NCBI GenBank assembly: GCA_002311835.1 | Contig: DBZY01000013.1 | Coordinates: 6,664 to 60,913 of the forward strand | Reading direction: 5' to 3' | DNA length: 54,250 nucleotides | DNA from: Proteobacteria bacterium UBA1148 | Lineage (GTDB): Bacteria; Pseudomonadota; Gammaproteobacteria; Steroidobacterales; Rariloculaceae | Shown here: positions 6,537 to 28,985 of the stretch, in pieces | How the letters are laid out: each line of letters starts with the position of its first letter | How positions within the stretch are numbered: the stretch's first letter is position 1 | Made by a program: the position numbers and the translations under genes | Notes under the pieces: generated by a model | Database searches by the model: none | What the model was told of the DNA's origin: nothing | What the model saw: the letters and a program-made list of their open reading frames with translations, nothing else

Positions 6537-7283
6537 TTACATAGCCCGCCACCAGACGAGCCTTCCTAACAGCTCAATCATGAAAAATAGGATCAAGGAA
6601 AGTCCTGTCACTACTAATAACGCCGAAAACATCAGCGCGGTTTGAGCTGAACCGGTGGCCGTCTGGATGAGATTGCCCAATCCGTCGTTCGAACCAACAA
6701 ACTCACCAACCACTGCACCAATCACGGCCAGAGGCATAGCCACCTTACACCCATCAACAAAGTTTGGGAGTGCGCTTGGTGCGCGCAACTTCCAAAACGT
6801 ATTCCATCCGGAAGTTTTCAACGCTTGAAAGTGCTCCACTAAACGGTCGGGTGTTGCACTAAGCCCCCCAAGAGTTGAGATAACAATTGGGAAGAAGGCA
6901 AACAAGAAGGCCATTACAACTTTAGATGGCAGGCCATAACCAAACCAGACGACGATAATGGGTGCTAACGCAACCTTGGGGATGCTTTGCAGTCCAATGA
7001 TCAACGGGTAGATCGTACGCCTAGCGATTGGAACAAAGAAAATTGCAGCAGAAATCACCACTCCAAACACTGCCGCAAAAATAAACCCAAACAACACCTC
7101 TTCAAGCGTAACCATAGCCTGCTCTAAGAGCAGCTCACGAAACTCCCAAGTTTCACGAAAAATATCCGTCAGCGAAGGTAGTAAATACGCGCGAACATCA
7201 AAGAGCTCAACTGAAAACTCCCAAAGAAGACCCAACACCAGAAAAAACACAAACGGGTCGATGATGTTTCTGTTGATTTTCAT
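6537..7283 (-). CDS. ABC transporter permease (NitT/TauT family)
   Basis: 248-aa ORF with six TM segments. The loop LQSIPKVALAPIIVVWFGYG is typical of SsuC/TauC-type permeases. It starts 6 nt after the substrate-binding gene. Confidence 0.85.
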   Translation of the reverse strand: MKINRNIIDPFVFFLVLGLLWEFSVELFDVRAYLLPSLTDIFRETWEFRELLLEQAMVTLEEVLFGFIFAAVFGVVISAAIFFVPIARRTIYPLIIGLQSIPKVALAPIIVVWFGYGLPSKVVMAFLFAFFPIVISTLGGLSATPDRLVEHFQALKTSGWNTFWKLRAPSALPNFVDGCKVAMPLAVIGAVVGEFVGSNDGLGNLIQTATGSAQTALMFSALLVVTGLSLILFFMIELLGRLVWWRAM

Positions 7284-7289
7284 CCTCAG

Positions 7290-8315
7290 TCAGTCTTCCG
7301 ACGGCGCAGATGAGCTCGGCAAAAATTCCGTCGTATAGATTTCATCTACAGTCATCGTGTCTTCAACGTCATAGGCCGCCATGAGAAAATTCATAGTTCG
7401 GGCTACTTTCTCATCGTCTAGCCAACCAAGTCCGGCCGGGCCAGTCATTAAATCTATGATTTCGTGAACTTGCTGTAAGGTGATATCAAAATCCAGCACT
7501 GGATAGTGCTGTGTGACGATTTTGGTCGCCTCCTCCGGGTTCTCTCGAACCCAGTCATAACCTCTATAGGTCGCCTCAAGGAATTGCCGCGCCACATCCG
7601 GTTTTTCTTCAAGAAGCTGCTCGGAGGTTATAATTCCGTTACCATAAACATCGAAATTAAAATCTCCGTATTCCAACAAATCAATCGTGAGACCCGCCTC
7701 TACTGCCCGTCTCTGGAAAACAGCAACACTATTTCCAAGCCAACACTCACCTGCATCAATCGTCCCCTCAACCAGAGAACCTGCAATAATCGAAGGTGCT
7801 AATTGCAGCAACTCAACAGAGTCAGCTTCAATGTCATTACGCTCCAACCACAGTGGGACAATGACCTGGATGGGCGAATTTTGCCCACCGCCTACTGTCA
7901 GACCTACAAGATCCCCTGGCTCATCCAACTGGTGACGTTCCGTAACGTAGCACAGCCCAGCCGGCCAACGTTCGTTAATCCCACCAATCAAACGGGTGCT
8001 ACCACCATTGTTGCGGTTAAGAATTACCGCAAGCGCATCAACATAGCCGAAGTCAAACATTCGCTGATCAATCTCGTTTGCTGTTCGGATACCTCCAAAA
8101 CCACGTACAGCCTCAACATCGAGCCCTAGCTCTTCATAAAACCCCTGATCTATGGCGACAATTACCCCACTCATACTCCCTTGTGGGAGCCACGACATGT
8201 TGAAAGTGATTCGCTCACTGGGGGGCTCGGAGCACGCGGCAATCAATAAGCACCCGACAACAGCTCCAACAAATCCACACGTGCGTAATGGGCTTATTTT
8301 ATTAGCAAGTTGCAC
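7290..8315 (-). CDS. ABC transporter substrate-binding lipoprotein (NMT1/THI5-like, NitT/TauT family)
   Basis: 341-aa ORF with a lipobox (LLIAAC). Overall it resembles NMT1/THI5-like periplasmic binding proteins. GTG start is preceded by GGAGG. Confidence 0.75.
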   Translation of the reverse strand: MQLANKISPLRTCGFVGAVVGCLLIAACSEPPSERITFNMSWLPQGSMSGVIVAIDQGFYEELGLDVEAVRGFGGIRTANEIDQRMFDFGYVDALAVILNRNNGGSTRLIGGINERWPAGLCYVTERHQLDEPGDLVGLTVGGGQNSPIQVIVPLWLERNDIEADSVELLQLAPSIIAGSLVEGTIDAGECWLGNSVAVFQRRAVEAGLTIDLLEYGDFNFDVYGNGIITSEQLLEEKPDVARQFLEATYRGYDWVRENPEEATKIVTQHYPVLDFDITLQQVHEIIDLMTGPAGLGWLDDEKVARTMNFLMAAYDVEDTMTVDEIYTTEFLPSSSAPSED

Positions 8316-8440
8316 CTTTACACCTCCGGTTCAATCTCTCAAAGAACGTATATATTTCACTGTATAATTTTACTCAGGTCATTCCTGCTGACACATTTCT
8401 CGAATCTTCCAGCCCTATTCTGGCATAGACCGAGCATCGC

Positions 8441-10858
8441 TCACAGTGAGTGTTGCTCACCGCTAACTGGGCAATATTCCTTCGCATGACGATTGCGAAC
8501 AGGCATCAGAGGTTCTACGTTAACCGCCATTGATTTTCTGCTCTTAACTGGTTCCTTGTACAGAGTTGTTCGTTGCTGGGCGAAACGCCCGAGATTTTCA
8601 ACCAAAGCATTCACCTTGTCGGGCGTCAACTCCTGACCGTGACTAGCACCTGCGGCACGAGAAATAGATTCATTCATCAGTGTGCCACCAAGATCATTTG
8701 CACCCGCCTTTAGGCAGTCGGCGGCTCCAGTTGCTCCCAACTTCACCCATGATGTTTGAATATTCCTTACCAGTGGATGAAGTGCCAAGCGCGCAACCGC
8801 GTGCATAAGCAGTGTTTCCCGATAAGTGGGCCCTTTCCGCGCCATTCCTCTTAGATACATAGGCGCCTCCATATGTACAAACGGAAGAGGTACAAATTCC
8901 GTTAGTCCTCCCGTACTCTGCTGTAGATCGCGTATACGTAAAAGGTGTCTTGCCCATGCGCGAGGCGTCTCCATATGCCCAAACATAATGGTCGAGGTCG
9001 TTGGTATACCGAGCCCATGAGCGATACGTATCACGTTAACCCACTCAGCCGTTGATAGCTTATCGGGACAGATAACCCGACGCACATCATCATCTAAGAT
9101 CTCAGCGGCAGTGCCAGGCAGACTACCAAGCCCAGCCTCACGTAATTGCTTCAGAAAAGTCTCAATACTCAAACTGAGTGTTTTAGCCCCGTGCGTAATC
9201 TCCAGCGGAGAAAACGCGTGCACGTGCATCTCGGGCACTGCTTCTTTTACAGCCCGGCAGATCGTCAGGTAGGTATCACCAGTAAATGCTGGATGAATGC
9301 CGCCTTGCAGGCAAACTTCCGTAGCACCCCGGCTCCATGCTTCTTCAGTACGTCGGCAGACCTCATCAAGCTCCAATACATAGGGTTCACCTCGCAAATC
9401 ATCTGTGCTTTTACCTTTGGAGAATGCACAAAAATGGCACTTATACTGACAAACATTCGTGTAATTGATGTTTCTATTGACCACGAAGGTAACGGCATCG
9501 CCACAGGTTTCACGACGGAGGTCGTCAGCACTCTGGCACACAAGATCAAAGTGCTCGCCACGAGCAGCAAACAAAGCTTCGATATCACTCTCAGCCAGAG
9601 ATTCTCCACCCCTCGTTCTACGCAATAACCCAGCGACCCTGCCGCGAGGTATTTGATTCTGCGAACGTTTCTGTAACGAAAAGGGCGTAGGCCCTATTGC
9701 GCCGGGGGACCAATCTTCACAACGCGCGAACCCTTCGCTATCAGAACTCCTCATTACCGGGGTGGAAAGTGCAGGATCAACCCAGTCTTTGCTACGACGC
9801 ACATATTCAGGGTAGATGGTGAGGCGTTGAACCAAAGTTTTACCAGCAGCAGCAGTTCTTTTTCGGAGCACAGATATCTGTGGCCAGGGGGATTCTGGGT
9901 TGACGTGGTCCGGTGTTACGGGAGATACGCCACCCCAATCGTTGATTCCAGCCTTGATCAATTCCGACAAGATCGATGGATTTAGATTTGGTGGCACCTG
10001 AATATTCATCTCGGGGCCGAACAAGTGTCGGGAAATTGCCACCGTCCATAGAAGCTCATCACTATCTGGCGGCTGAACATTTGCCATAATAGTACCCGGC
10101 TTCGGCACGAAGTTTTGGATGATAATCTCTTGCAAATGCCCGTAGCGCTCATGCAATTCCCTGAGTGCTAACAAGCTATCGAGCCGCTCTACTCGAGTTT
10201 CTCCGATGCCGATTAAAATGCCCGAGGTGAACGGAACTTTTGCTTTGCCGGCATTCTCGATAGAAGCAAGCCGGATCTCTGGATTCTTATCTGGCGAACC
10301 GTAGTGAGGCCCACCCGGCTGACACAGTCGCACCGAGGAAGACTCGAGCATCAGTCCCATTGATGGGGAGACAGCGCGCAGCCGCCTATAGTCCTCCAGC
10401 CCCAGCACACCCGGATTCAGATGTGGTAGCAAATCAGTTTCACGTAGCACCAGCTTGGCCATTTTCTCGACATACTCCAACGTCGACTTACAACCCAGAT
10501 CGCTCAGGGCTTCGCGCGCAGCTTTGTAACGGAGTTCGGGTTTATCACCCAAAGTAAATAGCGCTTCCTGACAGCCCTCCGCCTGCGCCGCACGCGCTAT
10601 CTCGAGGACTTGTTCTGGTGAGAGATAGATATTCGTGACGTGCCGGGGAGTCTTCGCATAGGTGCAATAGTGACAAACATCGCGACACAGCATAGTGAGG
10701 GGAATGAATGCCTTACGCGAGTAGCTCACTACATCACCCTTAGCATGATCTCGGAGCACACCTGCAGAGGCAATCAGATCCGAAAGCGGCATGCTTTCGG
10801 TAAGCTCTAATACTTTGGATCGGCTGGGGATTAAGTAAGATTTAATCAGCTCACTCAT
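8441..10858 (-). CDS. fbiC: 7,8-didemethyl-8-hydroxy-5-deazariboflavin (FO) synthase, fused CofG+CofH
   Basis: 805-aa ORF with two radical-SAM CxxxCxxC motifs. CRDVCHYC lies in the N-terminal half (CofG) and CQYKCHFC in the C-terminal half (CofH). Length and domain order match bifunctional FbiC. Confidence 0.9.
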   Translation of the reverse strand: MSELIKSYLIPSRSKVLELTESMPLSDLIASAGVLRDHAKGDVVSYSRKAFIPLTMLCRDVCHYCTYAKTPRHVTNIYLSPEQVLEIARAAQAEGCQEALFTLGDKPELRYKAAREALSDLGCKSTLEYVEKMAKLVLRETDLLPHLNPGVLGLEDYRRLRAVSPSMGLMLESSSVRLCQPGGPHYGSPDKNPEIRLASIENAGKAKVPFTSGILIGIGETRVERLDSLLALRELHERYGHLQEIIIQNFVPKPGTIMANVQPPDSDELLWTVAISRHLFGPEMNIQVPPNLNPSILSELIKAGINDWGGVSPVTPDHVNPESPWPQISVLRKRTAAAGKTLVQRLTIYPEYVRRSKDWVDPALSTPVMRSSDSEGFARCEDWSPGAIGPTPFSLQKRSQNQIPRGRVAGLLRRTRGGESLAESDIEALFAARGEHFDLVCQSADDLRRETCGDAVTFVVNRNINYTNVCQYKCHFCAFSKGKSTDDLRGEPYVLELDEVCRRTEEAWSRGATEVCLQGGIHPAFTGDTYLTICRAVKEAVPEMHVHAFSPLEITHGAKTLSLSIETFLKQLREAGLGSLPGTAAEILDDDVRRVICPDKLSTAEWVNVIRIAHGLGIPTTSTIMFGHMETPRAWARHLLRIRDLQQSTGGLTEFVPLPFVHMEAPMYLRGMARKGPTYRETLLMHAVARLALHPLVRNIQTSWVKLGATGAADCLKAGANDLGGTLMNESISRAAGASHGQELTPDKVNALVENLGRFAQQRTTLYKEPVKSRKSMAVNVEPLMPVRNRHAKEYCPVSGEQHSL

Positions 10859-10873
10859 TCAACTCACCTGTTA

Positions 10874-11641
10874 TTACACTACACCCATCAATTCGCCGAG
10901 TTGAACCCTATACTGCCCAAACTCAGGAACTTCCGGCAATGTCTTGGGATCCCGTGGTCGCGGCAAGTCAATTCGAACCTCTTCAATTATGCGCCCCGGC
11001 CGTTCAGACATCACCAATACACGATCCGAAAGAAATACAGCTTCTGAGATACTGTGAGTAACGAGGACAACCGTTTTCCGTTCAGCCTGCCAGATTCTCA
11101 GTAACTCTACGTTTAGTCGATCTCGGGTCAGAGCGTCTAGAGCACCAAAAGGCTCGTCCATAAGCATCACACGCGGATTACGCATGAGTGCCTGTCCAAT
11201 GGCGACCCTACGTCGCATACCTCCTGATAATTCGTGTGGATGACTTTTCTCAAAGCCCGTGAGACCAAGCATTTCAACCATAGTCTGAACTTGCTCGCGA
11301 AGTTCCTCCGTTGGAATGTTGCTCTCCTCAACACCGAGCCGGAGATTTCCCTCAACGGTTCGCCACGGCAGCAAATTCGCGCGCTGAAAAACAATGCCGA
11401 TGTCATCACTAGGGCCCCGGACAGGCTTGCCCAAAACGGTTGCAGTCCCTTCCTCATGCGGTATGAGCCCACCGATAATTCTCAGCATTGTGCTCTTGCC
11501 ACAGCCACTAGGGCCAAGCACAGCGACAAACTCACGATCAAAAATCTGGCAGCTGATGTTCTGCAAAGCCCTAACGCCCTCCTCTCCCCCAAAAGTCTTG
11601 CCAACCCCGTCGAGAGCAATCGTTACCTCCTCGGTGGACAT
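10874..11641 (-). CDS. ABC transporter ATP-binding protein (NitT/TauT family)
   Basis: 255-aa ORF with Walker A GPSGCGKST, signature LSGGMRRR and Walker B MLMDEPF. Its ATG overlaps the E1-beta stop by 1 nt (TGATG). Confidence 0.9.
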   Translation of the reverse strand: MSTEEVTIALDGVGKTFGGEEGVRALQNISCQIFDREFVAVLGPSGCGKSTMLRIIGGLIPHEEGTATVLGKPVRGPSDDIGIVFQRANLLPWRTVEGNLRLGVEESNIPTEELREQVQTMVEMLGLTGFEKSHPHELSGGMRRRVAIGQALMRNPRVMLMDEPFGALDALTRDRLNVELLRIWQAERKTVVLVTHSISEAVFLSDRVLVMSERPGRIIEEVRIDLPRPRDPKTLPEVPEFGQYRVQLGELMGVV

Positions 11642-12612
11642 CAGGAAAGAACCCTCAGCACTGCCTGGACGACTTTATCTTCCGTTGGTTCAATGTAACG
11701 CTCTAGCGTCTGGCTAAAAGGAACGGGAACATCCTCTGTTGATACGCGCACGATGGGAGCTCGCAGATCAGAAAAGGCTTTTTCGACAACTAATGCAGCA
11801 AACTCTGCGCCCACGCCACAGCGACGATGACACTCATCAACGATCACCAAATAATGGGTCTTTGCGACAGACTCCAGAATCGTATCCTCATCGAGAGGAA
11901 CAAGAGTTCGGGGATCAACTACCTCTGCATCTATACCTTGCTCAGCTAGCGTCTCTGCTGCAGAAAGGGCCAGCTGCACCATAAAAGACGAAGCAAGCAA
12001 AGTGATATCTTTACCGCCCCGTTTGATATCTGCCTGGCCGAAAGGAATCATATAATCGTCCTCCGGAACTGGCCCAATCACATCAAAAAGTCTTGTATGG
12101 TCGACGAAAGCAGTAGGGTTATCGGACTCCGCGGCAGTCTTCAATAGCCCCTTTACATCGTACGGAGATGATGGAGCCATAATTTCCAGTCCCGGCGTAT
12201 TCCACAACATCGCTTGTGGGCTGTGTGAATGTTGAGCTGCTCCACCACCGCGAATCCCATGATTAAAATGAAAAATCATCGGCACCTTGGTCTGCCCGCC
12301 AGTCATATAGTGAATGTTGGCCGCCTCATTAACGATTTGAGGAAACGCCTGAAAGATGAAACTAGCCGTCGCTATGTCGACGATTGGGCGTAAACCCGCA
12401 ATCGCTGCACCAATCGCTGCACCCACGTAGCCAAGTTCTGCAATAGGTGGATAATAGACTCTCCCCGGAAACGAATCTCGCACGTCCGCCATGAGTTCTC
12501 GATGTGAGGTTAATCCCAAAAAGTACTGGCCCATAAGATGAACACGCTCGTCCGCCTCAAGAAGTTCTCTCAATCCCTCTACAAGAGCCTCTGCGTAAAG
12601 GATTTCTCTCAT
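11641..12612 (-). CDS. 2-oxoacid (pyruvate/acetoin-type) dehydrogenase E1 component, beta subunit
   Basis: 323-aa ORF with a transketolase-like pyrimidine-binding plus C-terminal domain pattern. ATGA overlap with the E1 alpha gene. Confidence 0.85.
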   Translation of the reverse strand: MREILYAEALVEGLRELLEADERVHLMGQYFLGLTSHRELMADVRDSFPGRVYYPPIAELGYVGAAIGAAIAGLRPIVDIATASFIFQAFPQIVNEAANIHYMTGGQTKVPMIFHFNHGIRGGGAAQHSHSPQAMLWNTPGLEIMAPSSPYDVKGLLKTAAESDNPTAFVDHTRLFDVIGPVPEDDYMIPFGQADIKRGGKDITLLASSFMVQLALSAAETLAEQGIDAEVVDPRTLVPLDEDTILESVAKTHYLVIVDECHRRCGVGAEFAALVVEKAFSDLRAPIVRVSTEDVPVPFSQTLERYIEPTEDKVVQAVLRVLS

Positions 12613-13646
12613 GGTACTGACCCGCTTTTAGCAAACACCAGATCTAGCGCTGTTTCGGGTTCAGGATAGGGGCTTTCAAGCGCAAAATTCTCTGCAGTAC
12701 GCATTTGATCTTGGACTAATTCGTCAAGCGCAATCACCGTTTCCGGGGTCGCATGACCTTCGTCAATCATCTCCCGTACGAAGCGTAAGACACCATCCTG
12801 TGTAGTATGCCATTCTCGAAATTCTTCAGGAATCACTGTCTCATCCCAAGCCATGCTAAGGTTTGTTTCCCCTGTTACTAGTGCGGGCCACAAAGGCCGA
12901 TTCCCCGGCCAACGAACCGTGCGTGCTTCGATGAACGTCGGCCCCTCCCCGGAGCGGGCTCTATCGATAGCCTCGGTCATTCCATCACGAACTGCCTTTC
13001 CATCGCATCCGTCGATTGTAATAGCCGGAACCCCGAATGGGGCCACCAGATCCGTGAGACGCACGACGGCTAATGTAGAAGAAGGGTATTCACCTGCTTT
13101 CTGGCCTAATGCCTCTAAACTATTGTTTTCACATAAAAATATTAGTGGTAATTTTTCTAGTGCAGCGATATTAATCGACTCGTGATACGAGCCCTCCTCT
13201 AATGCACCGTCACCAAAAAGACACACACTGACGCGATCCGAACCGAGGCGGTCCATTCCGAATGCTGCCCCCGTGGCTAGAGGAGTGCAGCCACCAACAG
13301 CCGCTGACGTTGCCGGAAACCCCAGTTGTGCTGACGCCAAATGCAGTGTTCCGCCTCGCCCACCACAGTAACCAGTGGACTTGCCGAGAATTTCTGCCAG
13401 CATGAGCGCTGGATCGGCGCCACGAGCAAGCAAATGGCCGTGATTGCGATGAGTGGTAAAACACAAATCGCCTGTTTCAAGCAGATCAAGGGCCGCCACA
13501 CCAGTGATTTCCTGACCGACGTACACATGAAAATGCCCAACGTCGATTTTACCCGCCAACTTCACGAGCATTTCTTCAAAGCGCCGGATAGCCAGTGCTT
13601 TTTCCAGCAACCCTAGCAGTACTTTAGTCGACAGAGTCGGTAGCAA
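12609..13646 (-). CDS. 2-oxoacid dehydrogenase E1 component, alpha subunit (TPP-binding)
   Basis: 345-aa ORF with the TPP motif GDGALEEGSYHESINIAALEKLPLIFLCENN. TTG start in the ORF track. Confidence 0.85.
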   Translation of the reverse strand: MLPTLSTKVLLGLLEKALAIRRFEEMLVKLAGKIDVGHFHVYVGQEITGVAALDLLETGDLCFTTHRNHGHLLARGADPALMLAEILGKSTGYCGGRGGTLHLASAQLGFPATSAAVGGCTPLATGAAFGMDRLGSDRVSVCLFGDGALEEGSYHESINIAALEKLPLIFLCENNSLEALGQKAGEYPSSTLAVVRLTDLVAPFGVPAITIDGCDGKAVRDGMTEAIDRARSGEGPTFIEARTVRWPGNRPLWPALVTGETNLSMAWDETVIPEEFREWHTTQDGVLRFVREMIDEGHATPETVIALDELVQDQMRTAENFALESPYPEPETALDLVFAKSGSVP

Positions 13647-13686
13647 TTTGATGGGCCCTCTACCGCAGATTCATTAGTGCAGAAAA

Positions 13687-15429: not shown

Positions 15430-15443
15430 CTTTACGTCCTTTT

Positions 15444-17525: not shown

Positions 17526-17615
17526 GACCTCTTACCTCTCTGATTGATCGGTGGTACACACCGAACTCAATTCCACGTGTACGGACCAACCCTACATGTT
17601 TCCTTATCGCACCAA

Positions 17616-17651
17616 GGATTGTATCCTATATAAGAGTTTTGTATACAATCC
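17616..17651. promoter_or_regulatory. candidate GntR/FadR-type operator in the divergent hyuA / hydrolase control region
   Basis: A perfect 9-bp inverted repeat, GGATTGTAT-N18-ATACAATCC. The right arm contains the perfect palindrome TTGTATACAA (17639..17648), which fits the GT-Nx-AC core of GntR-family boxes. A GntR gene sits in the downstream operon. Confidence 0.5.
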
Positions 17652-17681
17652 TGACAACCCAGAAAATTAAGGAAGAAGACT

Positions 17682-18611
17682 ATCAAAGAAGAGCGCGTTT
17701 CGTTCTTTAGTGAGGGTGACCGAATCGCGGGAATCCTCCGTCTACCAAACAGTGGGGCGGCCCCACCATGGCCGGCCATTGTCCAGGGTCCCGGATGGTT
17801 GGGTCTAAAGGACGCCAAACTGTACCTCAGATATCACGCGGCTCTTACTGAGGCAGGCTTTGCTGTTCTGATTTTCGACTACCGAGGCTTTGGTGAGTCT
17901 GAGGGGCGAACAGATCTTTTGCGACCACAAGATCAACTTGAAGATCTGATCAACGCCGTGTCGTATCTCATCACGCGTGACGATGTTGATGCTGACAACA
18001 TTGGCGCCTTTGGCTCGGGCGGAACTGGTGGCGGTAATGCGCTAGTGTTGGCAGCGCAGGACCCTCGCGTCTGTTGTGCTGTATCACAGGTTCCAGTGGC
18101 CGATGGAAGAGACTGGCTACATCGAATGCGACGAGAATATGAGTGGCTGGAGTTTCTTGAACGCATCGAGGCAGATAGGGCACGTCGCGTACTCACAGGA
18201 AAAGGTGAGTTAGTCCACCCACGCCAAGAAATTATGGTGCCAACACCAGAACGAAAAAAAACGAACATTAAAAAGGACGTTGACTCAAAGATCCAAGAAG
18301 AGATCCTCCTGCGTAGCGCTGAATATATACTAGATTACAAACCAATAGAGTTGGTTAAAAAAATCGCTCCGCGCGCAGTAATGATCATTGGTGTAGAAAA
18401 TGATGCCACCACACCAACCGATCATGCGATCGCTCTCTATGAGGCAGCGGGTCAGCCAAAAAAGCTGATCTTACAAAGGCACACGACGCACTACGCAGCC
18501 TATGAAAAATACGGTGACACAGTCACACCTGAAATTGTTGATTGGTTCCGCAAACACATGACCCGCGGTAACTTGGATATCCGCCAGGAGGAGAAAAAAA
18601 ATGAAAGTTGA
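17682..18611 (+). CDS. alpha/beta hydrolase (start codon uncertain)
   Basis: The frame is open from 17655. Family-like N-terminal sequence (KEERVSFFSEGDRIAGILRLP...PAIVQGPGWLG) lies upstream of the first canonical start, the TTG at 17799. FDYRGFGESEG and a nucleophile-elbow-like GSGGTGGG are present. ATC at 17682 lies 6 nt after AAGGAAG. Confidence 0.7.
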   Translation: MKEERVSFFSEGDRIAGILRLPNSGAAPPWPAIVQGPGWLGLKDAKLYLRYHAALTEAGFAVLIFDYRGFGESEGRTDLLRPQDQLEDLINAVSYLITRDDVDADNIGAFGSGGTGGGNALVLAAQDPRVCCAVSQVPVADGRDWLHRMRREYEWLEFLERIEADRARRVLTGKGELVHPRQEIMVPTPERKKTNIKKDVDSKIQEEILLRSAEYILDYKPIELVKKIAPRAVMIIGVENDATTPTDHAIALYEAAGQPKKLILQRHTTHYAAYEKYGDTVTPEIVDWFRKHMTRGNLDIRQEEKKNES

Positions 18612-19974
18612 TGTTGCAATAACAGGTGGGCGGGTTTTCTCTGCCAATGGCGGTAAAGATCTCGATGTCCTAATCAACGGTGAAAAAATTACCGCTGTCG
18701 TAGAACCAAATTCCGAAGGAATAGAGGCAACGAAAACCATCGATGCTACTGACCTCTGGGTGCTCCCTGGCATGGTGGACCCACATGTTCATACTCGCGA
18801 GCCCGGACACACTCACAAGGAAGACATCTTGACGTGTAGCCAGGCTTCAGCCGCTGGGGGTGTTACGACTATTTTTGGAATGCCTAACCTAAAGCCGGCT
18901 ACGCTAACGCACAAAGACCTTGTAGATGTCCTAGGACTTTATGCTGAGAAGTGCTTGGTTGACTACAACCATAACCCCGTGCCGACATTAGGTGAGGTTG
19001 ATGCAATGGCGGAGACCGGTATCGCAGCATATAAGGTATACCAAGTCATCGATACCGGACGCGACTATCCTCACCCCTCTGGTACAGGTATCACTGACTC
19101 TGGCCATCTATTACAGATGTTTGAAGCTGTTTCGACAACTGGCAAACGATTTATGGTTCATCCTCACAATCAGGGAGTATGTGATCGGGTCGAACAAAGC
19201 TTCCACAAACGTGGAGACCGCAGCGTCGAAGCCTATGCTAAGACGCTGGCGACACACGATGGGCTCATTTGGGATCTTGCGACAGCAGAGCTCATCCGAA
19301 TGTCCGAAGCAACCAACTGTCCGTTACATCTTGTCCATGTACAAACCTCTCGCGGCGTGGAAATGATTCGACAGGCGAAAGAACGGGGTATTGATGTCAC
19401 AGGTGAGGTAAATCACTGGGCATTATTCCTAGGTAGCTGGGACATCGTTACGAAGCTCGGTCCTTATGCTCTGTCTTACTGGGTGCCAGATCACCACCGG
19501 GAAGCTATCGTCAAAGGTTTACAGGATGGCATCATTGATATGGTGAATTCTGATCATGCCCCACATACCCGTGAAGAAAAGGAGATTGGGTGGACCGACA
19601 TGTGGGCATGTCATACAGGCACACCAGGAATTCAATTCCAATATCCATTGATGATTGATGCCGTACATCGGGGTGAATTCACCATGGAACGAACTATTGA
19701 CCTTTGCTGTGAAGCACCTGCACGAGTTTTTAAACTCGACTCAAAGAAAGGCTCAATATCGGCTGGCCTCGATGCCGATATCGTATTGGTAGACCCAAAT
19801 AAAGAATGGACTATCACAGATGACATTGTGTTATCGAAGATCGGTTGGACCCCTTATAACGGACGAAAGTGTCGTGGGCAGGTACTGCGTACGCTGGTAC
19901 GAGGCACTGACGTCTATCTCGACGGAAAAATCGTAGGTACCCCTGGGCATGGAAAACACGCTACTCCAGATTAG
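18601..19974 (+). CDS. cyclic amidohydrolase (dihydroorotase/allantoinase/dihydropyrimidinase superfamily)
   Basis: 457-aa ORF with metal ligand motifs VDPHVHTREPG, AYKVY (candidate carboxylated Lys), HLVHVQT and NSDHAPH. It overlaps the hydrolase gene by 11 nt. Confidence 0.85.
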   Translation: MKVDVAITGGRVFSANGGKDLDVLINGEKITAVVEPNSEGIEATKTIDATDLWVLPGMVDPHVHTREPGHTHKEDILTCSQASAAGGVTTIFGMPNLKPATLTHKDLVDVLGLYAEKCLVDYNHNPVPTLGEVDAMAETGIAAYKVYQVIDTGRDYPHPSGTGITDSGHLLQMFEAVSTTGKRFMVHPHNQGVCDRVEQSFHKRGDRSVEAYAKTLATHDGLIWDLATAELIRMSEATNCPLHLVHVQTSRGVEMIRQAKERGIDVTGEVNHWALFLGSWDIVTKLGPYALSYWVPDHHREAIVKGLQDGIIDMVNSDHAPHTREEKEIGWTDMWACHTGTPGIQFQYPLMIDAVHRGEFTMERTIDLCCEAPARVFKLDSKKGSISAGLDADIVLVDPNKEWTITDDIVLSKIGWTPYNGRKCRGQVLRTLVRGTDVYLDGKIVGTPGHGKHATPD

Positions 19975-19985
19975 GAAAAAAAATT

Positions 19986-20975
19986 GTGGCAACAAAAATG
20001 AAATTTGGACTGCTTCTCCCTCACTTTGGGGAGTATGCATCAAGCACACGCCTCATTAGAGGTGCTCAGCTAGCAGAAGATCTTGGCTTTGATTCCATAT
20101 GGGTTAGGGATCACCTGGTATTTAAGCCTCACTCAGAAATGGAGAAAGCTGTACCAGTATTTTATGAAGCACTCGCCACATTAACAGCCGTGGGCGCGGT
20201 TACCAACCATATTACGCTAGGTACAGGATCGCTCATTCCGTTTCGCCACCCTCTGAACACTGCTTTAGCTCTCGCAACAATCAGCAATATTGTGGGACCA
20301 CGCCTCATTATAGGTTTTGGTGCCGGCACATTCGATCATGAGTTCGAAGCTATTGGTATGGCAGGAATTCCTCGTCCAGAACTAGTGGAATCAAACGCCA
20401 ATATTTTTAAGCGTATCTTTAATGAAAATAATGTTTCGTACAAAGATGATTACTACCAGTTTGAAAATATTTCCATCGAACCAAAACCACTTGGACCAGT
20501 GCCGTTTTGGTATTGTGGTGGCACTCCAAGATCTGCCCGTTTAGCGGTAAAATATGCAGATGGTTGGATGCCCGGCCGTATCACACTCGCAACAATCGAA
20601 AAGCGTGTTGAGGTAATGACCAAACTCTCATCAGAAGCGGGACGATCACTTCCAACCGTTGGTGTTATCCCACCAACATCTATAGCAAAATCACGTGAAG
20701 AAGCATTTGATGGACTCAACGTAGACGGTTTGCTCAAGTGGGCGAATGACCGAGGAAAGTGGTGGGTAAAACCACCTTCAGGGCGTTTCGAAACGGCTGA
20801 AGATATTGAGGGCTCACTCATCGCAGGCTCGCCTTCCGAAGTTGTTGAACAAACGAAAAAATTTGAAAAAGTTGGGGTCGAACACCTAGTTTTCGATTTG
20901 CGCCTTCGTTTTGACCGCTGGTTTGAGTCCATAGAACTGCTGGGAACACAGGTGCTACCACACCTCCGTGAGTGA
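19986..20975 (+). CDS. luciferase-like (LLM class) flavin/deazaflavin-dependent oxidoreductase, possibly F420-dependent
   Basis: 329-aa ORF. The N-terminus MKFGLLLPHFG...AEDLGFDSIWVRDHL is typical of LLM TIM-barrels. Cofactor type cannot be decided by eye. ATG at 19998 is an alternative start. Confidence 0.75.
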   Translation: MATKMKFGLLLPHFGEYASSTRLIRGAQLAEDLGFDSIWVRDHLVFKPHSEMEKAVPVFYEALATLTAVGAVTNHITLGTGSLIPFRHPLNTALALATISNIVGPRLIIGFGAGTFDHEFEAIGMAGIPRPELVESNANIFKRIFNENNVSYKDDYYQFENISIEPKPLGPVPFWYCGGTPRSARLAVKYADGWMPGRITLATIEKRVEVMTKLSSEAGRSLPTVGVIPPTSIAKSREEAFDGLNVDGLLKWANDRGKWWVKPPSGRFETAEDIEGSLIAGSPSEVVEQTKKFEKVGVEHLVFDLRLRFDRWFESIELLGTQVLPHLRE

Positions 20976-21640
20976 CTGTAGATAATGCCGTGACAACCAT
21001 AGCGGACAAGGTTTCTCGTCAACTGGCAGAAGAAATCATATCTGGGGTCATCTCACCGGGCCAAAAATTAGAAGAGCAAAATCTAGCCGAAAAGTTTAGC
21101 GTTTCGCGCTCACCAATTCGCGATGCACTGCGGCAACTTAGCGGAACAGGCCTAGTCGATATCAAGCCGAATCATAGTGTTACTGTCGTCGACCTCAAAG
21201 TGGATCAGTTGCACGATATGTACGAAGCGCTTGGCGAATTAGAAGCACTTTGTGCAAAATTCTGCGCCCAAAGAATGACGACTGTTGAGCGCAAACAACT
21301 CGAAGAGCTACATCAAAGATCGGCGATAGCAGTCAGGAAAAAAAGCAAAAAAACCTACGCAGATCTAAACGATCAATTTCACGACATGCTCCATCAAGGA
21401 TCCCATAATAAGAGTTTGCACAGCATCTCTGGAGAGTTGCGGCGGCGGCTTGCACCATTTCGCAGACCTACATTTTTTCGCGGGACAAAACGTCTCAAAG
21501 ACTCATGGGATGAACATGACAATGTTGTAAATGCAGTTCTAGCAGCAGATGCCAAACGCGCGCACGCAGAGATGGGAAGACATTTAGTGAACTCTAGTTT
21601 AAACGTTATCTCATATATCGAAGAAACCCGAGACTCATAA
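20972..21640 (+). CDS. GntR family transcriptional regulator (FadR/FCD subfamily)
   Basis: 222-aa ORF with an N-terminal winged-helix pattern (LEEQNLAEKFSVSRSPIRDALRQL) and a helical C-terminal FCD-like domain. GTGA overlap with the preceding LLM gene. Confidence 0.85.
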   Translation: MTVDNAVTTIADKVSRQLAEEIISGVISPGQKLEEQNLAEKFSVSRSPIRDALRQLSGTGLVDIKPNHSVTVVDLKVDQLHDMYEALGELEALCAKFCAQRMTTVERKQLEELHQRSAIAVRKKSKKTYADLNDQFHDMLHQGSHNKSLHSISGELRRRLAPFRRPTFFRGTKRLKDSWDEHDNVVNAVLAADAKRAHAEMGRHLVNSSLNVISYIEETRDS

Positions 21641-21653
21641 AGGTAAACTTTAT

Positions 21654-22658
21654 ATGCTCAAACTTGGATACAAAGCCTCCGCCGAACAATTCGGACCCAG
21701 TGAACTACTATCCTATACACTTTTAGCAGAGGAACAGGGTTTCGACTCGGCCTTTGTGAGCGATCACTTTCAACCATGGCGTCACAATGGCGGACATGCC
21801 CCATTTGCCCTCGCTTGGCTAGGTGCGGCCGGTGCTAAAACCTCACGCATCGTGCTCGGAACCAGCGTTCTTACACCAACCTTTAGATATCACCCCTCCA
21901 TCATTGCTCAGTGCTTTGGGACGTTGGGATCGATGTTCCCCGGCCGTATCATTCTAGGCATTGGTACGGGGGAGTCATTGAATGAGGTGCCAGCTTGCGG
22001 AGTCGAGTGGCCGGCAATTAAGGAGCGCTTTGCACGATTACGTGAAGCAGTCAGATTGATACATACGCTCTGGTCAGAGGAACGAGTTAGTTTCGACGGC
22101 GAGTTTTATACCACAGAGAATGCCACTATCTATGATCGACCCGACCAAGCACCACCAATCTATATTGCGGGTGCCGGTCCTATGATCGCAAAGTTCGCTG
22201 GTCGGACGGCCGATGGTTTCATTTGTACCAGTGGTAAGCCAACAGAGCTTTATAGCGAAAAACTCCTACCTAATGTATCAGCAGGCCTTGAAGCAGCGGG
22301 CCGGAGACCCGAAGATGTCGAACTCACAATTGAGCTCAAAGTCTCGTTCGATACCGATGGAAAAAAAGCACTCGAAGATACGCGCCATTGGGCGGTACTT
22401 GCTTTATCGCCAGAAGAAAAAATGTCGGTTAAGGATCCTTTGGAGATGGAACGCCTTGCCGACAGCTTACCTCTAGAACGTGCGGCATCACGGTGGATTG
22501 TTTCTACAGATCCCGATGAGCATATTGAGAAAATTCGCCCCTACATAGATCTCGGGTTTCGCCATCTCATATTCCACGCACCAGGACCGGATCAGGAGCG
22601 TTTTATCCGCCTCTATGCCGAAACCGTGCTCCCTAAGCTTCGAGACGCATTCAATTAA
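21654..22658 (+). CDS. fgd: F420-dependent glucose-6-phosphate dehydrogenase
   Basis: 334-aa ORF. From memory it is collinear with mycobacterial Fgd1 over the full length: KLGYKASAEQF, SDHFQPWRHNGGHAPF, LGTSVLTPTFRYHP, GTGESLNE, ERFARLRE, DGFICTSGK, RWIVS.DPDE and HLIFHAPG. Confidence 0.85.
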   Translation: MLKLGYKASAEQFGPSELLSYTLLAEEQGFDSAFVSDHFQPWRHNGGHAPFALAWLGAAGAKTSRIVLGTSVLTPTFRYHPSIIAQCFGTLGSMFPGRIILGIGTGESLNEVPACGVEWPAIKERFARLREAVRLIHTLWSEERVSFDGEFYTTENATIYDRPDQAPPIYIAGAGPMIAKFAGRTADGFICTSGKPTELYSEKLLPNVSAGLEAAGRRPEDVELTIELKVSFDTDGKKALEDTRHWAVLALSPEEKMSVKDPLEMERLADSLPLERAASRWIVSTDPDEHIEKIRPYIDLGFRHLIFHAPGPDQERFIRLYAETVLPKLRDAFN

Positions 22659-22669
22659 GGATCATTCCT

Positions 22670-23698
22670 TTGCTTGATTCCGACCCAAAGCTCAAATCAT
22701 CCTCTGAGACGCGTCCAACTTCGGTAATCGCTCTCACAGGTGGAGTCGGCGGTGCAAAACTTGCATTAGGCCTTCATCGTATTCTTGCTCCTGGGGATTT
22801 CATGATAATTTGCAACACAGGTGATGACTTTTATCATCTAGGTCTCGAGATATCCCCAGATATAGACACAGTCCTTTACACACTCTCAGGATTAGCAGAT
22901 CCGTCCCGAGGCTGGGGACGCCGTGACGAGACATGGAATTTCATGGCAGCTCTCGAAGAAATTGGTGGTCATACCTGGTTTCAGCTTGGTGATCAGGATT
23001 TAGCTACTCACATTGAGCGTACAAAACGACTCACAGAAGGCGAAACTTTGTCAGCTGTCACCGATTATTTTCGGCAACAACTTGGAATCGCCACACGTAT
23101 TGTGCCCATGAGTGATGATCCTGTCCGGACACGGCTACGCACTACAATGGGCTGGATTGATTTTCAGGATTACTTCGTACGCCAAAACTGTAAGCCGTCG
23201 GTAAGGGAAATAGCATTCGATAACGTAGAAACGGCGCGTATAGCCCCAGCTATCCTACCCGCTTTAAGTGACCCACACCTTCGTGCCGTTGTTATTTGTC
23301 CATCGAACCCGCTCATCAGCGTTGAGCCCATCTTAGCTGTGCCCGGCATGCGCAGAGCGTTACGTTCCTGCACTGCACCCGTAATTGGCATCTCTCCCAT
23401 CATTAATGGTCAAGCCGTCCGAGGGCCAGCAGCTAAGCTGATGGAAGAACTCGGGTTTGAACCGAGCGCTTCAGCGGTCGCACAACGTTATACCGACGTG
23501 ATTGACACCTGGATCGTTGATGAATCGGATGCAGACGCGCGCGTACCTACGGGCGTCGAAAAAGTCGTTACCGAGACATTAATGATCACTATAAAAGATC
23601 GTGAGAAACTCGCTCAGAAGGTGCTTGCCGTAGCCCAACAACGAGGCCGAGAAGAATCAAGTGTAACTATGACATCGAATGTGATGAGTGATGACTAA
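22670..23698 (+). CDS. cofD: 2-phospho-L-lactate (or analogous phospho-donor) transferase, CofD/FbiA
   Basis: 342-aa ORF with VIALTGGVGGAKLALGL near the N-terminus and ICNTGDDF, both typical of CofD. TTG start in the ORF track. Confidence 0.85.
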   Translation: MLDSDPKLKSSSETRPTSVIALTGGVGGAKLALGLHRILAPGDFMIICNTGDDFYHLGLEISPDIDTVLYTLSGLADPSRGWGRRDETWNFMAALEEIGGHTWFQLGDQDLATHIERTKRLTEGETLSAVTDYFRQQLGIATRIVPMSDDPVRTRLRTTMGWIDFQDYFVRQNCKPSVREIAFDNVETARIAPAILPALSDPHLRAVVICPSNPLISVEPILAVPGMRRALRSCTAPVIGISPIINGQAVRGPAAKLMEELGFEPSASAVAQRYTDVIDTWIVDESDADARVPTGVEKVVTETLMITIKDREKLAQKVLAVAQQRGREESSVTMTSNVMSDD

Positions 23699-24434
23699 TA
23701 CCCCACAACTCAACCTAAAAAATACTGAAGTGAAAATCTATTCTGACGTGGATCTCCTGGCACATGCAGCTGCAACCCTGCTGTGCAATCGCCTATCTTC
23801 TACAAAAGGTGATATAGCGGTATCACTTGCGGGCGGCTCAACCCCAAAGCGGCTCTACGAACTTCTTGCGAGTCCAACTTATCTTGAACAGATACCCTGG
23901 AAACGCGTCCACTGGTTTTGGGGCGATGAACGATTCGTTCCGCCAGACGACCCACAAAGCAACTTCTCCATGTTCAAGACCACTGTGCTATCCCGCGCAC
24001 CCGTTCCAGCAACCAATATTCACCCTATCCCAACCATTGGGCTCACACCAGAAATAGCAGCCGATGTTTATGCTCAAGAGTTACAACGGTTTCATGGGGA
24101 AAAGGTGCTCTCAGCTAAAAACCCATTATTCGGTGTAGTTATCCTCGGGCTGGGGGAAGACGGCCACACGGCATCTCTGTTCCCTGGTTCGCCTGCCCTG
24201 AAAGAACGTTCGCGCTGGGCGACGTGCGCGAATCTGGATCAGGCCGTACCACGAATCACTCTAACCTACCCCGCCCTAGAGTCTTGCCATGATTGTTTAT
24301 TTCTCGTTACAGGATCAGCTAAAAGAACCATTCTAAGATCTATTTTTCGTGGCGATGTTTTTCCCGCAACGCGTCTAAAACCGCAAGGTCGATGCACTTG
24401 GCTCTTAGATCAAGCGGCTGCGCCCGACGGCTAG
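23688..24434 (+). CDS. pgl: 6-phosphogluconolactonase
   Basis: 248-aa ORF with the motifs LAGGSTPKRLYELL, WGDERFVP and LGLGEDGHTASLFPG. It overlaps cofD by 11 nt. Confidence 0.9.
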   Translation: MMTNTPQLNLKNTEVKIYSDVDLLAHAAATLLCNRLSSTKGDIAVSLAGGSTPKRLYELLASPTYLEQIPWKRVHWFWGDERFVPPDDPQSNFSMFKTTVLSRAPVPATNIHPIPTIGLTPEIAADVYAQELQRFHGEKVLSAKNPLFGVVILGLGEDGHTASLFPGSPALKERSRWATCANLDQAVPRITLTYPALESCHDCLFLVTGSAKRTILRSIFRGDVFPATRLKPQGRCTWLLDQAAAPDG

Positions 24435-26028: not shown

Positions 26029-26583
26029 ATGACGACTATATTGGGACTCTCAGGAAGCTTGCGGTCAAGATCATTCAACACTGCGTTGCTGACTGCAGCC
26101 GCCGAAATGATGCCAGCAGAAATCCAATTAGAAATAACAACCATTCAGGGAATTCCTCTCTATAACGAGGATGTAGAAAGTATGGAAGGCGAGCCCAAGT
26201 CGGTCACAGTTTTAAAACGTCAGATCTCTGACGCCGATGGATTATTGATCTCAACACCGGAGTACAACCACTCAATACCCGGTGTGGCAAAAAATGCTAT
26301 TGACTGGCTTTCACGACCCTTGTCAGATATCCCTCGTATTTTTGGTGCCCGACCAATCGCGATCATGGGTGCAGCGATGAGTAATTTCGGTACCATTCAA
26401 GCACAACGTGCTTGGTTACCTGTATTAAAAGCGCTCGGAGCTCAAGTATGGACTGGTGGGCGACTGCTCGTAAGCGAGGCACATACCGTATTTGATACAT
26501 CCGGTAACCTAGTAAATACACAGGTGGAAGAAGAGCTACGTGTATTTATCGAGGGGTTTGCAAACCACGTCGCAAACAACTAA
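26029..26583 (+). CDS. NAD(P)H-dependent FMN reductase family protein
   Basis: 184-aa ORF with [14 protein letters not shown] and [19 protein letters not shown], typical of the flavodoxin-like FMN reductase family. Confidence 0.8.
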
Positions 26584-27569: not shown

Positions 27570-27576
27570 GGAACGT

Positions 27577-28245: not shown

Positions 28246-28295
28246 TCTCCTTGTTCTCCTTGAAGCTTCTTGGTCGATCGCACTAACCAACCAAT

Positions 28296-28970: not shown

Positions 28971-28985
28971 GGTGGGCTCAGTTTT

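Follow-up and report, generated by a model that had tools for sequence, protein, structure and literature searches.

Gene content and organization of the locus

The window, a 54,250-nt stretch of contig DBZY01000013.1 from Proteobacteria bacterium UBA1148 (assembly GCA_002311835.1, positions 6,664 to 60,913), harbors between 3.4 and 26 kb the complete pathway for biosynthesis of the cofactor F420 (fbiC, cofC, cofD and cofE) together with the complete F420-reducing branch of the oxidative pentose-phosphate pathway (fgd, pgl and gnd). These genes are intermingled with genes of a catabolic type, encoding an ATP-dependent hydantoinase/lactamase (hyuAB), a thiamine pyrophosphate (TPP)-dependent E1 pair, an ABC transporter with an NMT1/THI5-like substrate-binding protein (SBP), an alpha/beta hydrolase (abH), a cyclic amidohydrolase (cycAm), a luciferase-like oxidoreductase (LLM) and a GntR/FCD regulator. 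On the minus strand, fbiC is placed between the ABC ATPase and SBP genes of the unit headed by hyuA; on the plus strand, fgd, cofD and pgl follow abH, cycAm, LLM and the regulator gene, and the two units diverge from a shared spacer (Table 1).

An earlier reading of this DNA, the original prediction, had described the two units as a GntR-controlled island that degrades a cyclic amide or N-heterocycle with F420H2 and makes its own cofactor on demand. Its gene identities, order, strands and gaps were borne out, all 15 genes that it named lying where it had placed them; the families that it had assigned were upheld by Pfam and NCBIfam profile matches, and the inverted repeat that it had noticed in the spacer was confirmed as two 10-nt arms with 100% complementarity. 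The cofE-cofC pair (3465-4930) and gnd (24449-26017), which lie just beyond the region it covered, had been missed. FbiC, CofC, CofD and CofE score above their NCBIfam or Pfam family thresholds, and Fgd belongs to its family as well (TIGR03554, 481 bits against a cut-off of 420), with pgl downstream and gnd convergent. HyuAB, cycAm, the E1 pair, LLM and abH are clear superfamily members, yet all of them score below every NCBIfam equivalog cut-off, and for this reason no specific enzyme name was given to them.

The locus is 100% identical in a 47-kb JGI contig (L001; loci are designated by such numbers hereafter), and its gene order is repeated in L091, which comes from another metagenome, with 85-99% amino acid identity. 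As an independent metagenome and L001 share the order, the layout is real and not an assembly artefact; proteins of the window were also found on contigs of 64, 126 and 347 kb. The original prediction took the two units to be co-transcribed operons. The tight gene spacing agrees with this, but promoter and terminator scans of the window returned no more matches than shuffled sequence, and as these scans were uninformative, co-transcription is predicted here from gene spacing. An Rfam scan of the whole window revealed no riboswitch or other RNA family, so that the SBP gene is not preceded by a TPP or FMN element, and no tRNA genes were found in the window.

The start of abH deserves comment, since it sets the length of the divergent spacer. 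No ATG, GTG or TTG precedes the TTG at 17799, though the frame is open from 17655, and in a PDB alignment the homology to a solved esterase begins at codon 13 of this open frame, approximately at 17691. An ATC at 17682 follows an AAGGAAG ribosome-binding site; the same ATC is found in L091 and L087, and L088 has an ATG at that position. Translation of abH from the non-canonical ATC at 17682 is therefore probable as judged from these comparisons, and the gene has either a rare non-canonical start or is translationally impaired. Because the homology and the ATG of L088 place the start at 17682, the divergent spacer measures approximately 156 nt, not 273.

Table 1. Genes and features of the F420/catabolic locus (window coordinates)
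Feature	Position	Strand	Support and spacing
Aldo-keto reductase (AKR)	2454..3452	+	Pfam Aldo_ket_red 252 bits; 13 nt 5' of cofE
cofE, F420:gamma-glutamyl ligase, single domain	3465..4235	+	Pfam F420_ligase 259 bits
cofC/fbiD guanylyltransferase	4232..4930	+	Pfam CofC 91 bits
DASS-family anion symporter	5019..6521	+	Pfam and NCBIfam; convergent with permease gene
ABC permease, NitT/TauT type	6537..7283	-	Pfam BPD_transp_1
NMT1/THI5-like SBP	7290..8315	-	Pfam NMT1 99.5 bits; 6-nt gap to permease
fbiC, fused CofG-CofH FO synthase	8441..10858	-	NF006687 1137 vs cut-off 1018; 125-nt gap to SBP
ABC ATPase	10874..11641	-	Pfam ABC_tran; 15-nt gap to fbiC
E1beta, TPP-dependent dehydrogenase	11641..12612	-	Pfam Transket_pyr and Transketolase_C; 1-nt overlap with ATPase
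E1alpha, TPP-dependent dehydrogenase	12609..13646	-	Pfam E1_dh; 4-nt overlap with E1beta
hyuB, ATP-dependent hydantoinase/lactamase subunit B	13687..15429	-	Pfam Hydantoinase_B 467 bits; 40-nt gap to E1alpha
hyuA, ATP-dependent hydantoinase/lactamase subunit A	15444..17525	-	Pfam; 14-nt gap to hyuB
Inverted repeat in divergent promoter spacer	17615..17652		Contains palindrome TTGTATACAA at 17639-17648
abH, alpha/beta hydrolase	17682..18611	+	Pfam and NCBIfam; 11-nt overlap with cycAm
cycAm, binuclear-metal cyclic amidohydrolase	18601..19974	+	Closest L-hydantoinase 1gkr; 11-nt gap to LLM
LLM, luciferase-like oxidoreductase	19986..20975	+	TIGR03619 best family, below cut-off; 4-nt overlap with GntR
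GntR/FCD regulator	20972..21640	+	Pfam GntR and FCD; 13-nt gap to fgd
fgd, F420-dependent glucose-6-phosphate dehydrogenase	21654..22658	+	TIGR03554 481 vs 420; 11-nt gap to cofD
cofD, 2-phospho-L-lactate transferase	22670..23698	+	TIGR01819 304 vs 257; 11-nt overlap with pgl
pgl, 6-phosphogluconolactonase	23688..24434	+	TIGR01198 193 vs 124
gnd, 6-phosphogluconate dehydrogenase	24449..26017	-	TIGR00873 685 vs 427; convergent with pgl
NADPH-dependent FMN reductase	26029..26583	+	Pfam FMN_red

A widely distributed abH-cycAm-LLM cassette

The hydrolase, cyclic amidohydrolase and LLM genes, which the original prediction had listed together on the plus strand, form a cassette that is conserved far beyond this genome. 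A survey of 89 loci (nine contexts fetched by exact protein and 80 metagenome loci retrieved with an LLM alignment) placed cycAm directly upstream of LLM in 74 cases and abH upstream of cycAm in 56, the remainder being mostly truncated contigs. Homologs of the LLM number in the thousands; among the best 120 listed, the 100 most distant are 66-77% identical, and these 120 include sponge-associated Candidatus Spongiisocius (Acidimicrobiia), other Acidimicrobiia and Gemmatimonadales. Overall, the cassette occurs in Acidimicrobiia, Gemmatimonadales and Pseudomonadota, i.e., in at least three phyla, at G + C contents of 47-73%.

Clustering of the open reading frames (ORFs) around the cassette identified an MFS_3 transporter (21 loci), an NMT1-type ABC ATPase (17 loci) and a GntR/FCD regulator (about 15 loci) as recurrent neighbors. 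In addition, the large subunit of an XDH/CODH-family molybdenum (Mo) hydroxylase is found near the cassette in 13 loci, with FAD, [2Fe-2S] and CoxG partners, and genes for M20 peptidases, amidases, aldehyde dehydrogenases, short-chain dehydrogenases (SDR) and acyl-CoA dehydrogenases occur as well. Read from gene content, this set of neighbors is the signature of N-heterocycle catabolism. The transporter was also considered as a pointer to a common substrate, and this idea was rejected, as the NMT1 SBPs encoded next to the cassette elsewhere share no more than about 21% identity with that of the window.

The best PDB match of cycAm is the Arthrobacter L-hydantoinase 1gkr (188 bits, compared with approximately 160 for allantoinase and dihydroorotase (DHOase)), and the binuclear-metal ligands HxH, Lys, His, His and Asp all align with those of 1gkr, which places the protein in this metal-dependent family. 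Its scores for the named enzymes remain well below the equivalog cut-offs: 268 against 482 for DHOase, 253 against 358 for allantoinase and 237 against 393 for D-hydantoinase. For abH, the nearest NCBIfam family is the lactonase UilS, at 127 bits and far below the cut-off.

Association of the LLM with F420 genes

The best-scoring family of the LLM is TIGR03619 (F420-dependent, Rv2161c family), at 144.7 bits against a cut-off of 166.9; the same family ranks best for each of five orthologs, which score 136-160. Its closest PDB sequence matches are Mer (the best), fHMAD and Fgd1, and RutA (TIGR03612) gave no match at an E value of 1e-5 or better. The AlphaFold model of the LLM has a pLDDT of 89. 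Structure was tried as a discriminator of the cofactor and set aside, because Foldseek places the FMN-dependent SfnG together with the F420-dependent Mer, Fgd and Adf.

The genomic neighborhoods are more informative. In five loci (L141, L145, L163, L164 and L170) fgd adjoins the cassette in the order abH-cycAm-LLM-fgd with gaps of 11-95 nt, and Fgd is also encoded beside the cassette in L118 and L168. The Fgd proteins of L118, L141, L170 and L058 score 468-501 on TIGR03554 (cut-off 420), and those of L145, L163, L164 and L168 were assigned by tblastn identity alone (58-66%). In L058, a metagenome-assembled genome (MAG) of Pseudolabrys, LLM-abH-IclR diverges from a fgd-cofE-cofD-cofC-fbiC operon, with cycAm and the genes of an NMT1 ABC system another 4-6 kb away. 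In L096, cofD-cofC is located directly 3' of LLM. The most elaborate array is that of L095 (9064-20886), where a single strand carries abH, LLM, an FrhB-like gene, subunits of a 2-oxoacid:ferredoxin oxidoreductase, cofE, cofD, an apparent CofC-FbiC fusion of 1005 aa and a second LLM, with glutathione S-transferase (GST) and O-methyltransferase genes directly 5' of abH-LLM. The FrhB-like gene encodes an F420-binding Fe-S protein, and the array suggests a 2-oxoacid-driven F420 reductase.

In a neighbor-joining tree of the LLM, the cassette loci linked to Fgd, F420 biosynthesis or FrhB-like genes fall into at least six separate clades, with G + C contents of 50-73%. The LLM flanks contain seven Fgd genes in 0.72 Mb, or 9.7 per Mb, which is an enrichment of approximately 20-fold or more over our own background estimate of about 0.2-0.5 per Mb, made for one or two gene copies in a genome of 4-6 Mb. 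Judging from these cofactor-gene neighborhoods, the LLM is likely F420-dependent, and it probably consumes F420H2 rather than producing it. Thus, of the F420H2 chemistry put forward in the original prediction, the tie to cofactor genes finds support in the repeated proximity of the cassette to Fgd, F420 and FrhB genes, but neither the family score, which is below the TIGR03619 cut-off, nor the undiscriminating fold search decides the matter for the enzyme itself.

The hyuAB-E1 module

The Hydantoinase_A and Hydantoinase_B Pfam domains of HyuAB are complete. HyuA is about equally close to its two best solved relatives, caprolactamase (6yra, 469 bits) and N-methylhydantoinase (7hk5, 457 bits). 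HyuAB is not a caprolactamase equivalog, with scores of 645 for CapA and 354 for CapB against a cut-off of 1000. The window HyuB is 79-85% identical to its counterparts in L088, L093, L171, L173 and L174. E1alpha, which scores below the pyruvate dehydrogenase equivalog cut-offs, belongs to a large and well-conserved family with relatives 63-72% identical, and E1beta is 66-74% identical to the second E1beta of a conserved hyuAB-E1-E1-lipoyl-E2 operon. In full, this operon runs hyuA-hyuB-E1alpha'-E1beta'-E1alpha-E1beta-lipoyl protein-E2 catalytic domain and is accompanied by a GntR/FCD gene (L171/L172 and L174); L173 has a Mo hydroxylase in place of lipoyl and E2. Between these loci, HyuB shows 79% identity. 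In three independent contexts the window type of E1alpha belongs to the second E1 pair of this fixed arrangement. The scan of window ORFs revealed neither a lipoyl nor an E2 gene that would complete a 2-oxoacid (or acetoin) dehydrogenase. By this comparison the window hyuAB-E1 is a reduced copy with the second E1 pair only.

The pairing of HyuAB-E1 with the cyclic amidohydrolase and LLM genes, on which the original prediction had built, recurs in other lineages. In L088, the hyuAB-E1-E1-lipoyl-E2 operon is divergent from abH-LLM-GntR; in L093, hyuB-hyuA is divergent from abH-LLM; and in L174, the hyuAB-E1 operon continues into GntR-ABC ATPase-abH-cycAm. Their co-location in these three loci indicates that the two modules function together. 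The E1/E2 loci and the 2-oxoacid:ferredoxin oxidoreductase of L095 suggest in addition that ring opening yields a 2-oxo acid. A direct link between fbiC and hyuAB, the neighborhood that the original prediction proposed to search for, fared less well: only distant HyuAB paralogs (28-39% identical) were found near fbiC, in 4 of 80 genomes, and given the many HyuAB paralogs of proteobacteria we judged this compatible with chance; the association of hyuAB-E1 elsewhere is with the cassette.

At a distance of 12 kb from the cluster, the window also contains a creatininase-family gene (36037-36846, minus strand), a GFO/IDH/MocA oxidoreductase gene and a second GntR/FCD gene (37993-38709), which may represent another cyclic-amide-related unit. 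A route from creatinine via N-methylhydantoin to HyuAB was considered and not adopted, as the creatininase-family gene is 12 kb away rather than adjacent.

Origin of the F420 genes and their embedding

A scan of one genome per GTDB species, in which the 80 closest fbiC loci were examined, showed that the relatives of FbiC, at most 68% identical, come mostly from Gamma- and Alphaproteobacterial MAGs (57-68% identical) and in some cases from Chloroflexota. A compact cofE-cofD-cofC-fbiC operon ending in fbiC is present at about 60 of these 80 loci, and in Alphaproteobacteria it is often headed by a true fgd whose product is 65-72% identical to the window Fgd; the window cofE is 44-58% identical to cofE of proteobacterial F420 operons. 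Because its closest fbiC relatives carry this compact operon, the F420 genes of the window are best described as a broken ordinary operon: the pieces cofE-cofC, fbiC and fgd-cofD are its rearranged fragments and not an extra, pathway-specific copy. The compact proteobacterial arrangement is attributed to Ney et al. 2017 and Braga et al. 2019, as cited within PMC8498797. The window shares with it the same five or six genes and has a single-domain CofE, but its copy is divided into three pieces on both strands, interleaved with 12 catabolic, transport and regulatory genes, and fbiC is by contrast located inside an ABC transporter unit.

The history of this embedding can be traced in the sister locus L087, whose LLM and FbiC are 86% and 79% identical to those of the window. 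Its order is cofE-cofC-DASS, fbiC on the opposite strand, an insertion sequence (IS) fragment, abH-cycAm, an IS (DDE_3) gene and LLM; the DASS symporter gene thus follows cofC there as well. Sensitive searches around the intact fbiC of L087 recovered gene remnants (3140-3345 and 5966-6480) that follow the order of the window: 20 C-terminal residues of the permease, SBP residues 128-183, 38 C-terminal residues of the ATPase, and 36 N-terminal residues of HyuA together with the 5' flank of hyuA. Since these remnants keep the window order, the placement of fbiC inside the ABC/hyu unit is ancestral to the clade of the window and L087. The remnants show that L087 lost its hyuAB, E1 and ABC transporter genes by deletions near the IS fragment, with fbiC being spared, and the retention of fbiC after this loss indicates that F420 is needed independently of those genes. 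The embedded fbiC is an inherited rearrangement, probably co-transcribed with the ABC/hyu unit, and not evidence of a cofactor made only on demand.

The gnd gene has been kept near the locus in L082, L087 and L091. Several other features of these loci are worth recording. In L082 (4047-5819; LLM 88% identical), cofD and pgl are fused into a 590-aa ORF with CofD and 6-phosphogluconolactonase domains; in the window they are separate genes that overlap by 11 nt in different frames. The AKR gene is apparently co-operonic with cofE-cofC, AKR genes are also located near fbiC in L023 and L056, and a role in F420 side-chain chemistry is conceivable. The G + C content is approximately 49-50% in the window and L091, compared with 58-60% in the sister loci L082 and L087 (LLMs 86-88% identical), a large difference in composition for such close relatives. 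Beside the F420/gnd region, a cytochrome c gene, two genes without a Pfam match and a DUF6152 gene are present in both the window (26643-29330) and L082 (6880-10102), and in L087 only DUF6152 genes were seen there.

A candidate operator in the divergent spacer

The arms of the inverted repeat, AGGATTGTAT (17615-17624) and ATACAATCCT (17643-17652), are 18 nt apart, and by a rough estimate approximately 0.01 such repeats would be expected in a spacer of that size. The perfect palindrome TTGTATACAA (17639-17648) is a candidate GntR operator and overlaps a weak -10-like element on both strands. A GT..AC core is typical of GntR-family operators, and the regulator itself has the N-terminal GntR helix-turn-helix and C-terminal FCD domain that accompany the palindrome in the spacer. 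The hyuA-abH spacers of the window, L087, L088 and L093 cannot be aligned, and the GT..AC palindrome is their only conserved element, each spacer having two to five T(T/C/G)G(T/C)AT(A/G)C half-palindromes. The four spacers contain 14 matches in 1595 bp, compared with 0-0.5 per kb elsewhere in the same loci, a number that none of 2000 shuffles reached, although this statistic is optimistic as the pattern was picked after looking at the sequences. A further site, TTGGATACAA (21664-21673), lies 10 nt inside fgd and differs from TTGTATACAA by one mismatch; three sites with at most one mismatch were found in the window where 1.3 were expected, and this one may be due to chance.

Going by motif conservation, GntR plausibly controls both divergent units. 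Nothing indicates that it controls the F420 pathway as a whole: no operator-like motif was found upstream of AKR-cofE-cofC or before the SBP gene, the only near match being TTGGATACAA in fgd. The proposal that the island makes its own cofactor on demand found no support, as cofE-cofC forms a separate unit without the operator motif, the F420 genes descend from a normal compact operon, and L087 has kept fbiC after losing hyuAB, E1 and the ABC genes.

A proposed pathway and its alternatives

The explanation that we favor, and regard as somewhat probable, is that this interleaved mosaic of F420 and catabolic genes serves an F420H2-driven degradation of heterocycles under GntR control. The mosaic consists of the F420 biosynthesis genes with the fgd, pgl and gnd recharging genes, derived from a compact (fgd)-cofE-cofD-cofC-fbiC operon now in three pieces; the conserved abH/cycAm/LLM cassette, usually accompanied by a GntR/FCD regulator and an importer; and a reduced copy of the operon in which hyuAB is joined by two E1 pairs, a lipoyl protein and E2. 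Established here are which genes are present and in what order, that the modules are conserved and repeatedly located beside F420 genes, and that the operator-like motif is conserved. From these we infer which cofactor the LLM uses, in what direction and order the reactions run, what the substrate is and how the genes are regulated, as follows. The NMT1-type ABC system would import a nitrogen heterocycle or cyclic amide, and the LLM would reduce the imported ring with F420H2 supplied by Fgd from glucose-6-phosphate. The saturated ring would then be hydrolyzed open by the metal amidohydrolase and/or the ATP-dependent HyuAB; the alpha/beta hydrolase would remove a carbamoyl, acyl or ester group, and the E1 enzyme would decarboxylate the 2-oxo-acid product. 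GntR may repress both divergent promoters via TTGTATACAA-type sites and release them in the presence of the substrate or an intermediate. Our best guess for the substrate is a hydantoin-, pyrimidone- or keto-lactam-like N-heterocycle. More tentatively, and as a possibility short of a probable one, the cassette, often together with hyuAB-E1-E1-lipoyl-E2 or an XDH-type Mo hydroxylase, may represent a widespread, hitherto undescribed F420H2-dependent reductive ring-opening pathway of Actinomycetota, Gemmatimonadota and Pseudomonadota, acting on hydantoin-, pyrimidone- and keto-lactam-like substrates.

Several observations weigh against this explanation. The window LLM and all of the orthologs tested fall below the TIGR03619 cut-off, and Foldseek ranks the FMN-dependent SfnG equal to the F420-dependent Mer, Fgd and Adf. 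Approximately 85% of the cassette loci have no F420 gene in the fetched flanks, many of the contigs being short, and an FMN reductase gene lies 5 kb away in the window. The cassette-linked SBPs of other lineages are not clearly orthologous to that of the window, abH has no canonical start codon, and with the first E1 pair and the lipoyl and E2 genes missing from the window, its E1 may be crippled.

An alternative hypothesis is that the housekeeping F420 genes were simply scattered among the catabolic ones and that the LLM is a monooxygenase of the RutA, PyrA or TpdA type that cleaves rings with FMNH2 and O2, with the FMN reductase encoded nearby (26029-26583) as its partner and F420 having no role in the pathway. 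The LLMs known to cleave N-heterocycles, RutA and PyrA, are FMN-dependent, which counts in favor of such a neutral juxtaposition; the closest fbiC relatives stand in a purely biosynthetic operon, most cassette loci have no adjacent F420 genes, the sister locus L087 shows IS fragments and deletions, and SfnG occupies rank 1 in the fold search. We nevertheless consider it unlikely, as the cassette has Fgd, F420 biosynthesis or FrhB genes for neighbors in at least six clades of the LLM tree at roughly 20-fold enrichment, F420 enzymes rank highest among both profile and PDB sequence matches with no RutA match at 1e-5 or better, and L091, of the same species, is the only other locus with the FMN reductase gene beside the cassette; this gene is probably not part of the F420/catabolic system. 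The strong version of the original prediction, that GntR switches fbiC, cofD and fgd together with catabolism such that F420 is formed only with the substrate, draws on the tight spacing of these three genes within the two divergent units, on the single conserved operator-like palindrome in their shared spacer, and on the persistence of the embedded order since the split from L087. It appears still less likely, for besides the separate cofE-cofC unit with no operator-like motif upstream and the intact fbiC that L087 retained after losing hyuAB, E1 and the ABC transporter, the 125-nt gap before the SBP gene holds a promoter-like match, and in L082 the gaps around GntR and fgd have widened to 139 and 208 nt.

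The LLM may also act in the oxidative direction, as an F420-reducing dehydrogenase that would convert a cyclic hemiaminal, hemiacetal or alcohol to a lactam or lactone, to be opened by the hydrolase, with production of F420H2. Several of its nearest solved relatives (Fgd1, fHMAD and Adf) are F420-reducing dehydrogenases, and UilS, the nearest family of the hydrolase, is a lactonase, though at a score far under the cut-off; however, the repeated adjacency to F420-reducing systems (Fgd, and in L095 FrhB with the 2-oxoacid oxidoreductase) better suits a consumer of F420H2, and Mer, the best PDB sequence match, is a reductase, which leaves this direction rather improbable. Finally, the genes might tailor a secondary metabolite or a cofactor derivative. 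The GST and O-methyltransferase genes directly upstream of abH-LLM in L095 would fit such a role, as would the frequency of F420-dependent LLMs in biosynthetic clusters (PMC8498797); with core biosynthetic enzymes absent and with SBP-dependent ABC importers, GntR/FCD regulators, hydrolases, Mo hydroxylases and aldehyde, acyl-CoA and 2-oxoacid dehydrogenases as the recurrent partners, we hold it to be very improbable.

Significance and comparison with known systems

Searches of the full-text literature, with incomplete coverage, found no description of such a system and no link between F420 and hydantoinases; the original prediction, too, was aware of no described pathway that combines these genes. 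What is new here is a pair of widespread, uncharacterized catabolic modules, of which the LLM is repeatedly tied to F420-reducing or biosynthetic genes, with the window as the most intermingled example; the hyuAB-E1-E1-lipoyl-E2 operon is strongly conserved and apparently uncharacterized as well. For what purpose F420 is made by Proteobacteria and Chloroflexi is listed as an open question in the field's main review (PMC8498797). The cassette loci provide a specific and testable candidate for its purpose in Proteobacteria, and if the cassette does represent a widespread reductive ring-opening pathway, F420 would thereby gain its first concrete physiological role in Proteobacteria of marine or host-associated habitats. 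Should the LLM be an F420H2-dependent heterocycle reductase, it would constitute a new class of F420 reaction, of interest for biocatalysis, and a new microbial route for the turnover of cyclic amides, and several thousand proteins with the generic annotations 'LLM class oxidoreductase' or 'dihydroorotase-like' could be named.

Compared to hydantoin utilization and reductive pyrimidine catabolism, the window has a cycAm close to the L-hydantoinase 1gkr and a HyuA close to caprolactamase and N-methylhydantoinase, and an M20 (carbamoylase-type) gene is located 5' of the cassette in L083 and L089; however, the window lacks a racemase, a carbamoylase and an NAD(P)H-dependent dihydropyrimidine dehydrogenase, and the LLM would take the place of the reductase. 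The Rut pyrimidine pathway (the FMN-dependent LLM RutA, RutB, and the alpha/beta hydrolase RutD) resembles the window in combining an LLM with an alpha/beta hydrolase, and an isochorismatase gene is located near the F420 operon of L058. The window differs in having a cyclic amidohydrolase, in the absence of a TIGR03612 match and in that the FMN reductase is not a conserved neighbor.

In the nicotinate fermentation of Eubacterium barkeri, a Mo hydroxylase and a ring reductase act before enamidase, a ring opener of the amidohydrolase superfamily. The Mo hydroxylase beside LLM and cycAm in 13 cassette loci may follow an analogous logic, although the window has no Mo hydroxylase, the enzymes are not orthologous, and the electron donor would be F420H2 rather than ferredoxin. 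A further comparison is with the npd cluster, which in Rhodococcus and Nocardioides serves the degradation of picrate and 2,4-dinitrophenol by means of F420H2-dependent hydride transferases of the LLM type and an F420 reductase. Reductive degradation of picrate mediated by luciferase-like hydride transferases (LLHT) is mentioned in PMC8498797. The logic common to both is a catabolic cluster that couples an LLM-type hydride transferase with an enzyme regenerating F420H2. The window differs in substrate class, having no nitroaromatic enzymes; regeneration proceeds by Fno in npd and would proceed by Fgd, Pgl and Gnd in the window, where amidohydrolases would open the rings, and unlike npd, the window carries the genes for biosynthesis of the cofactor within the cluster itself.

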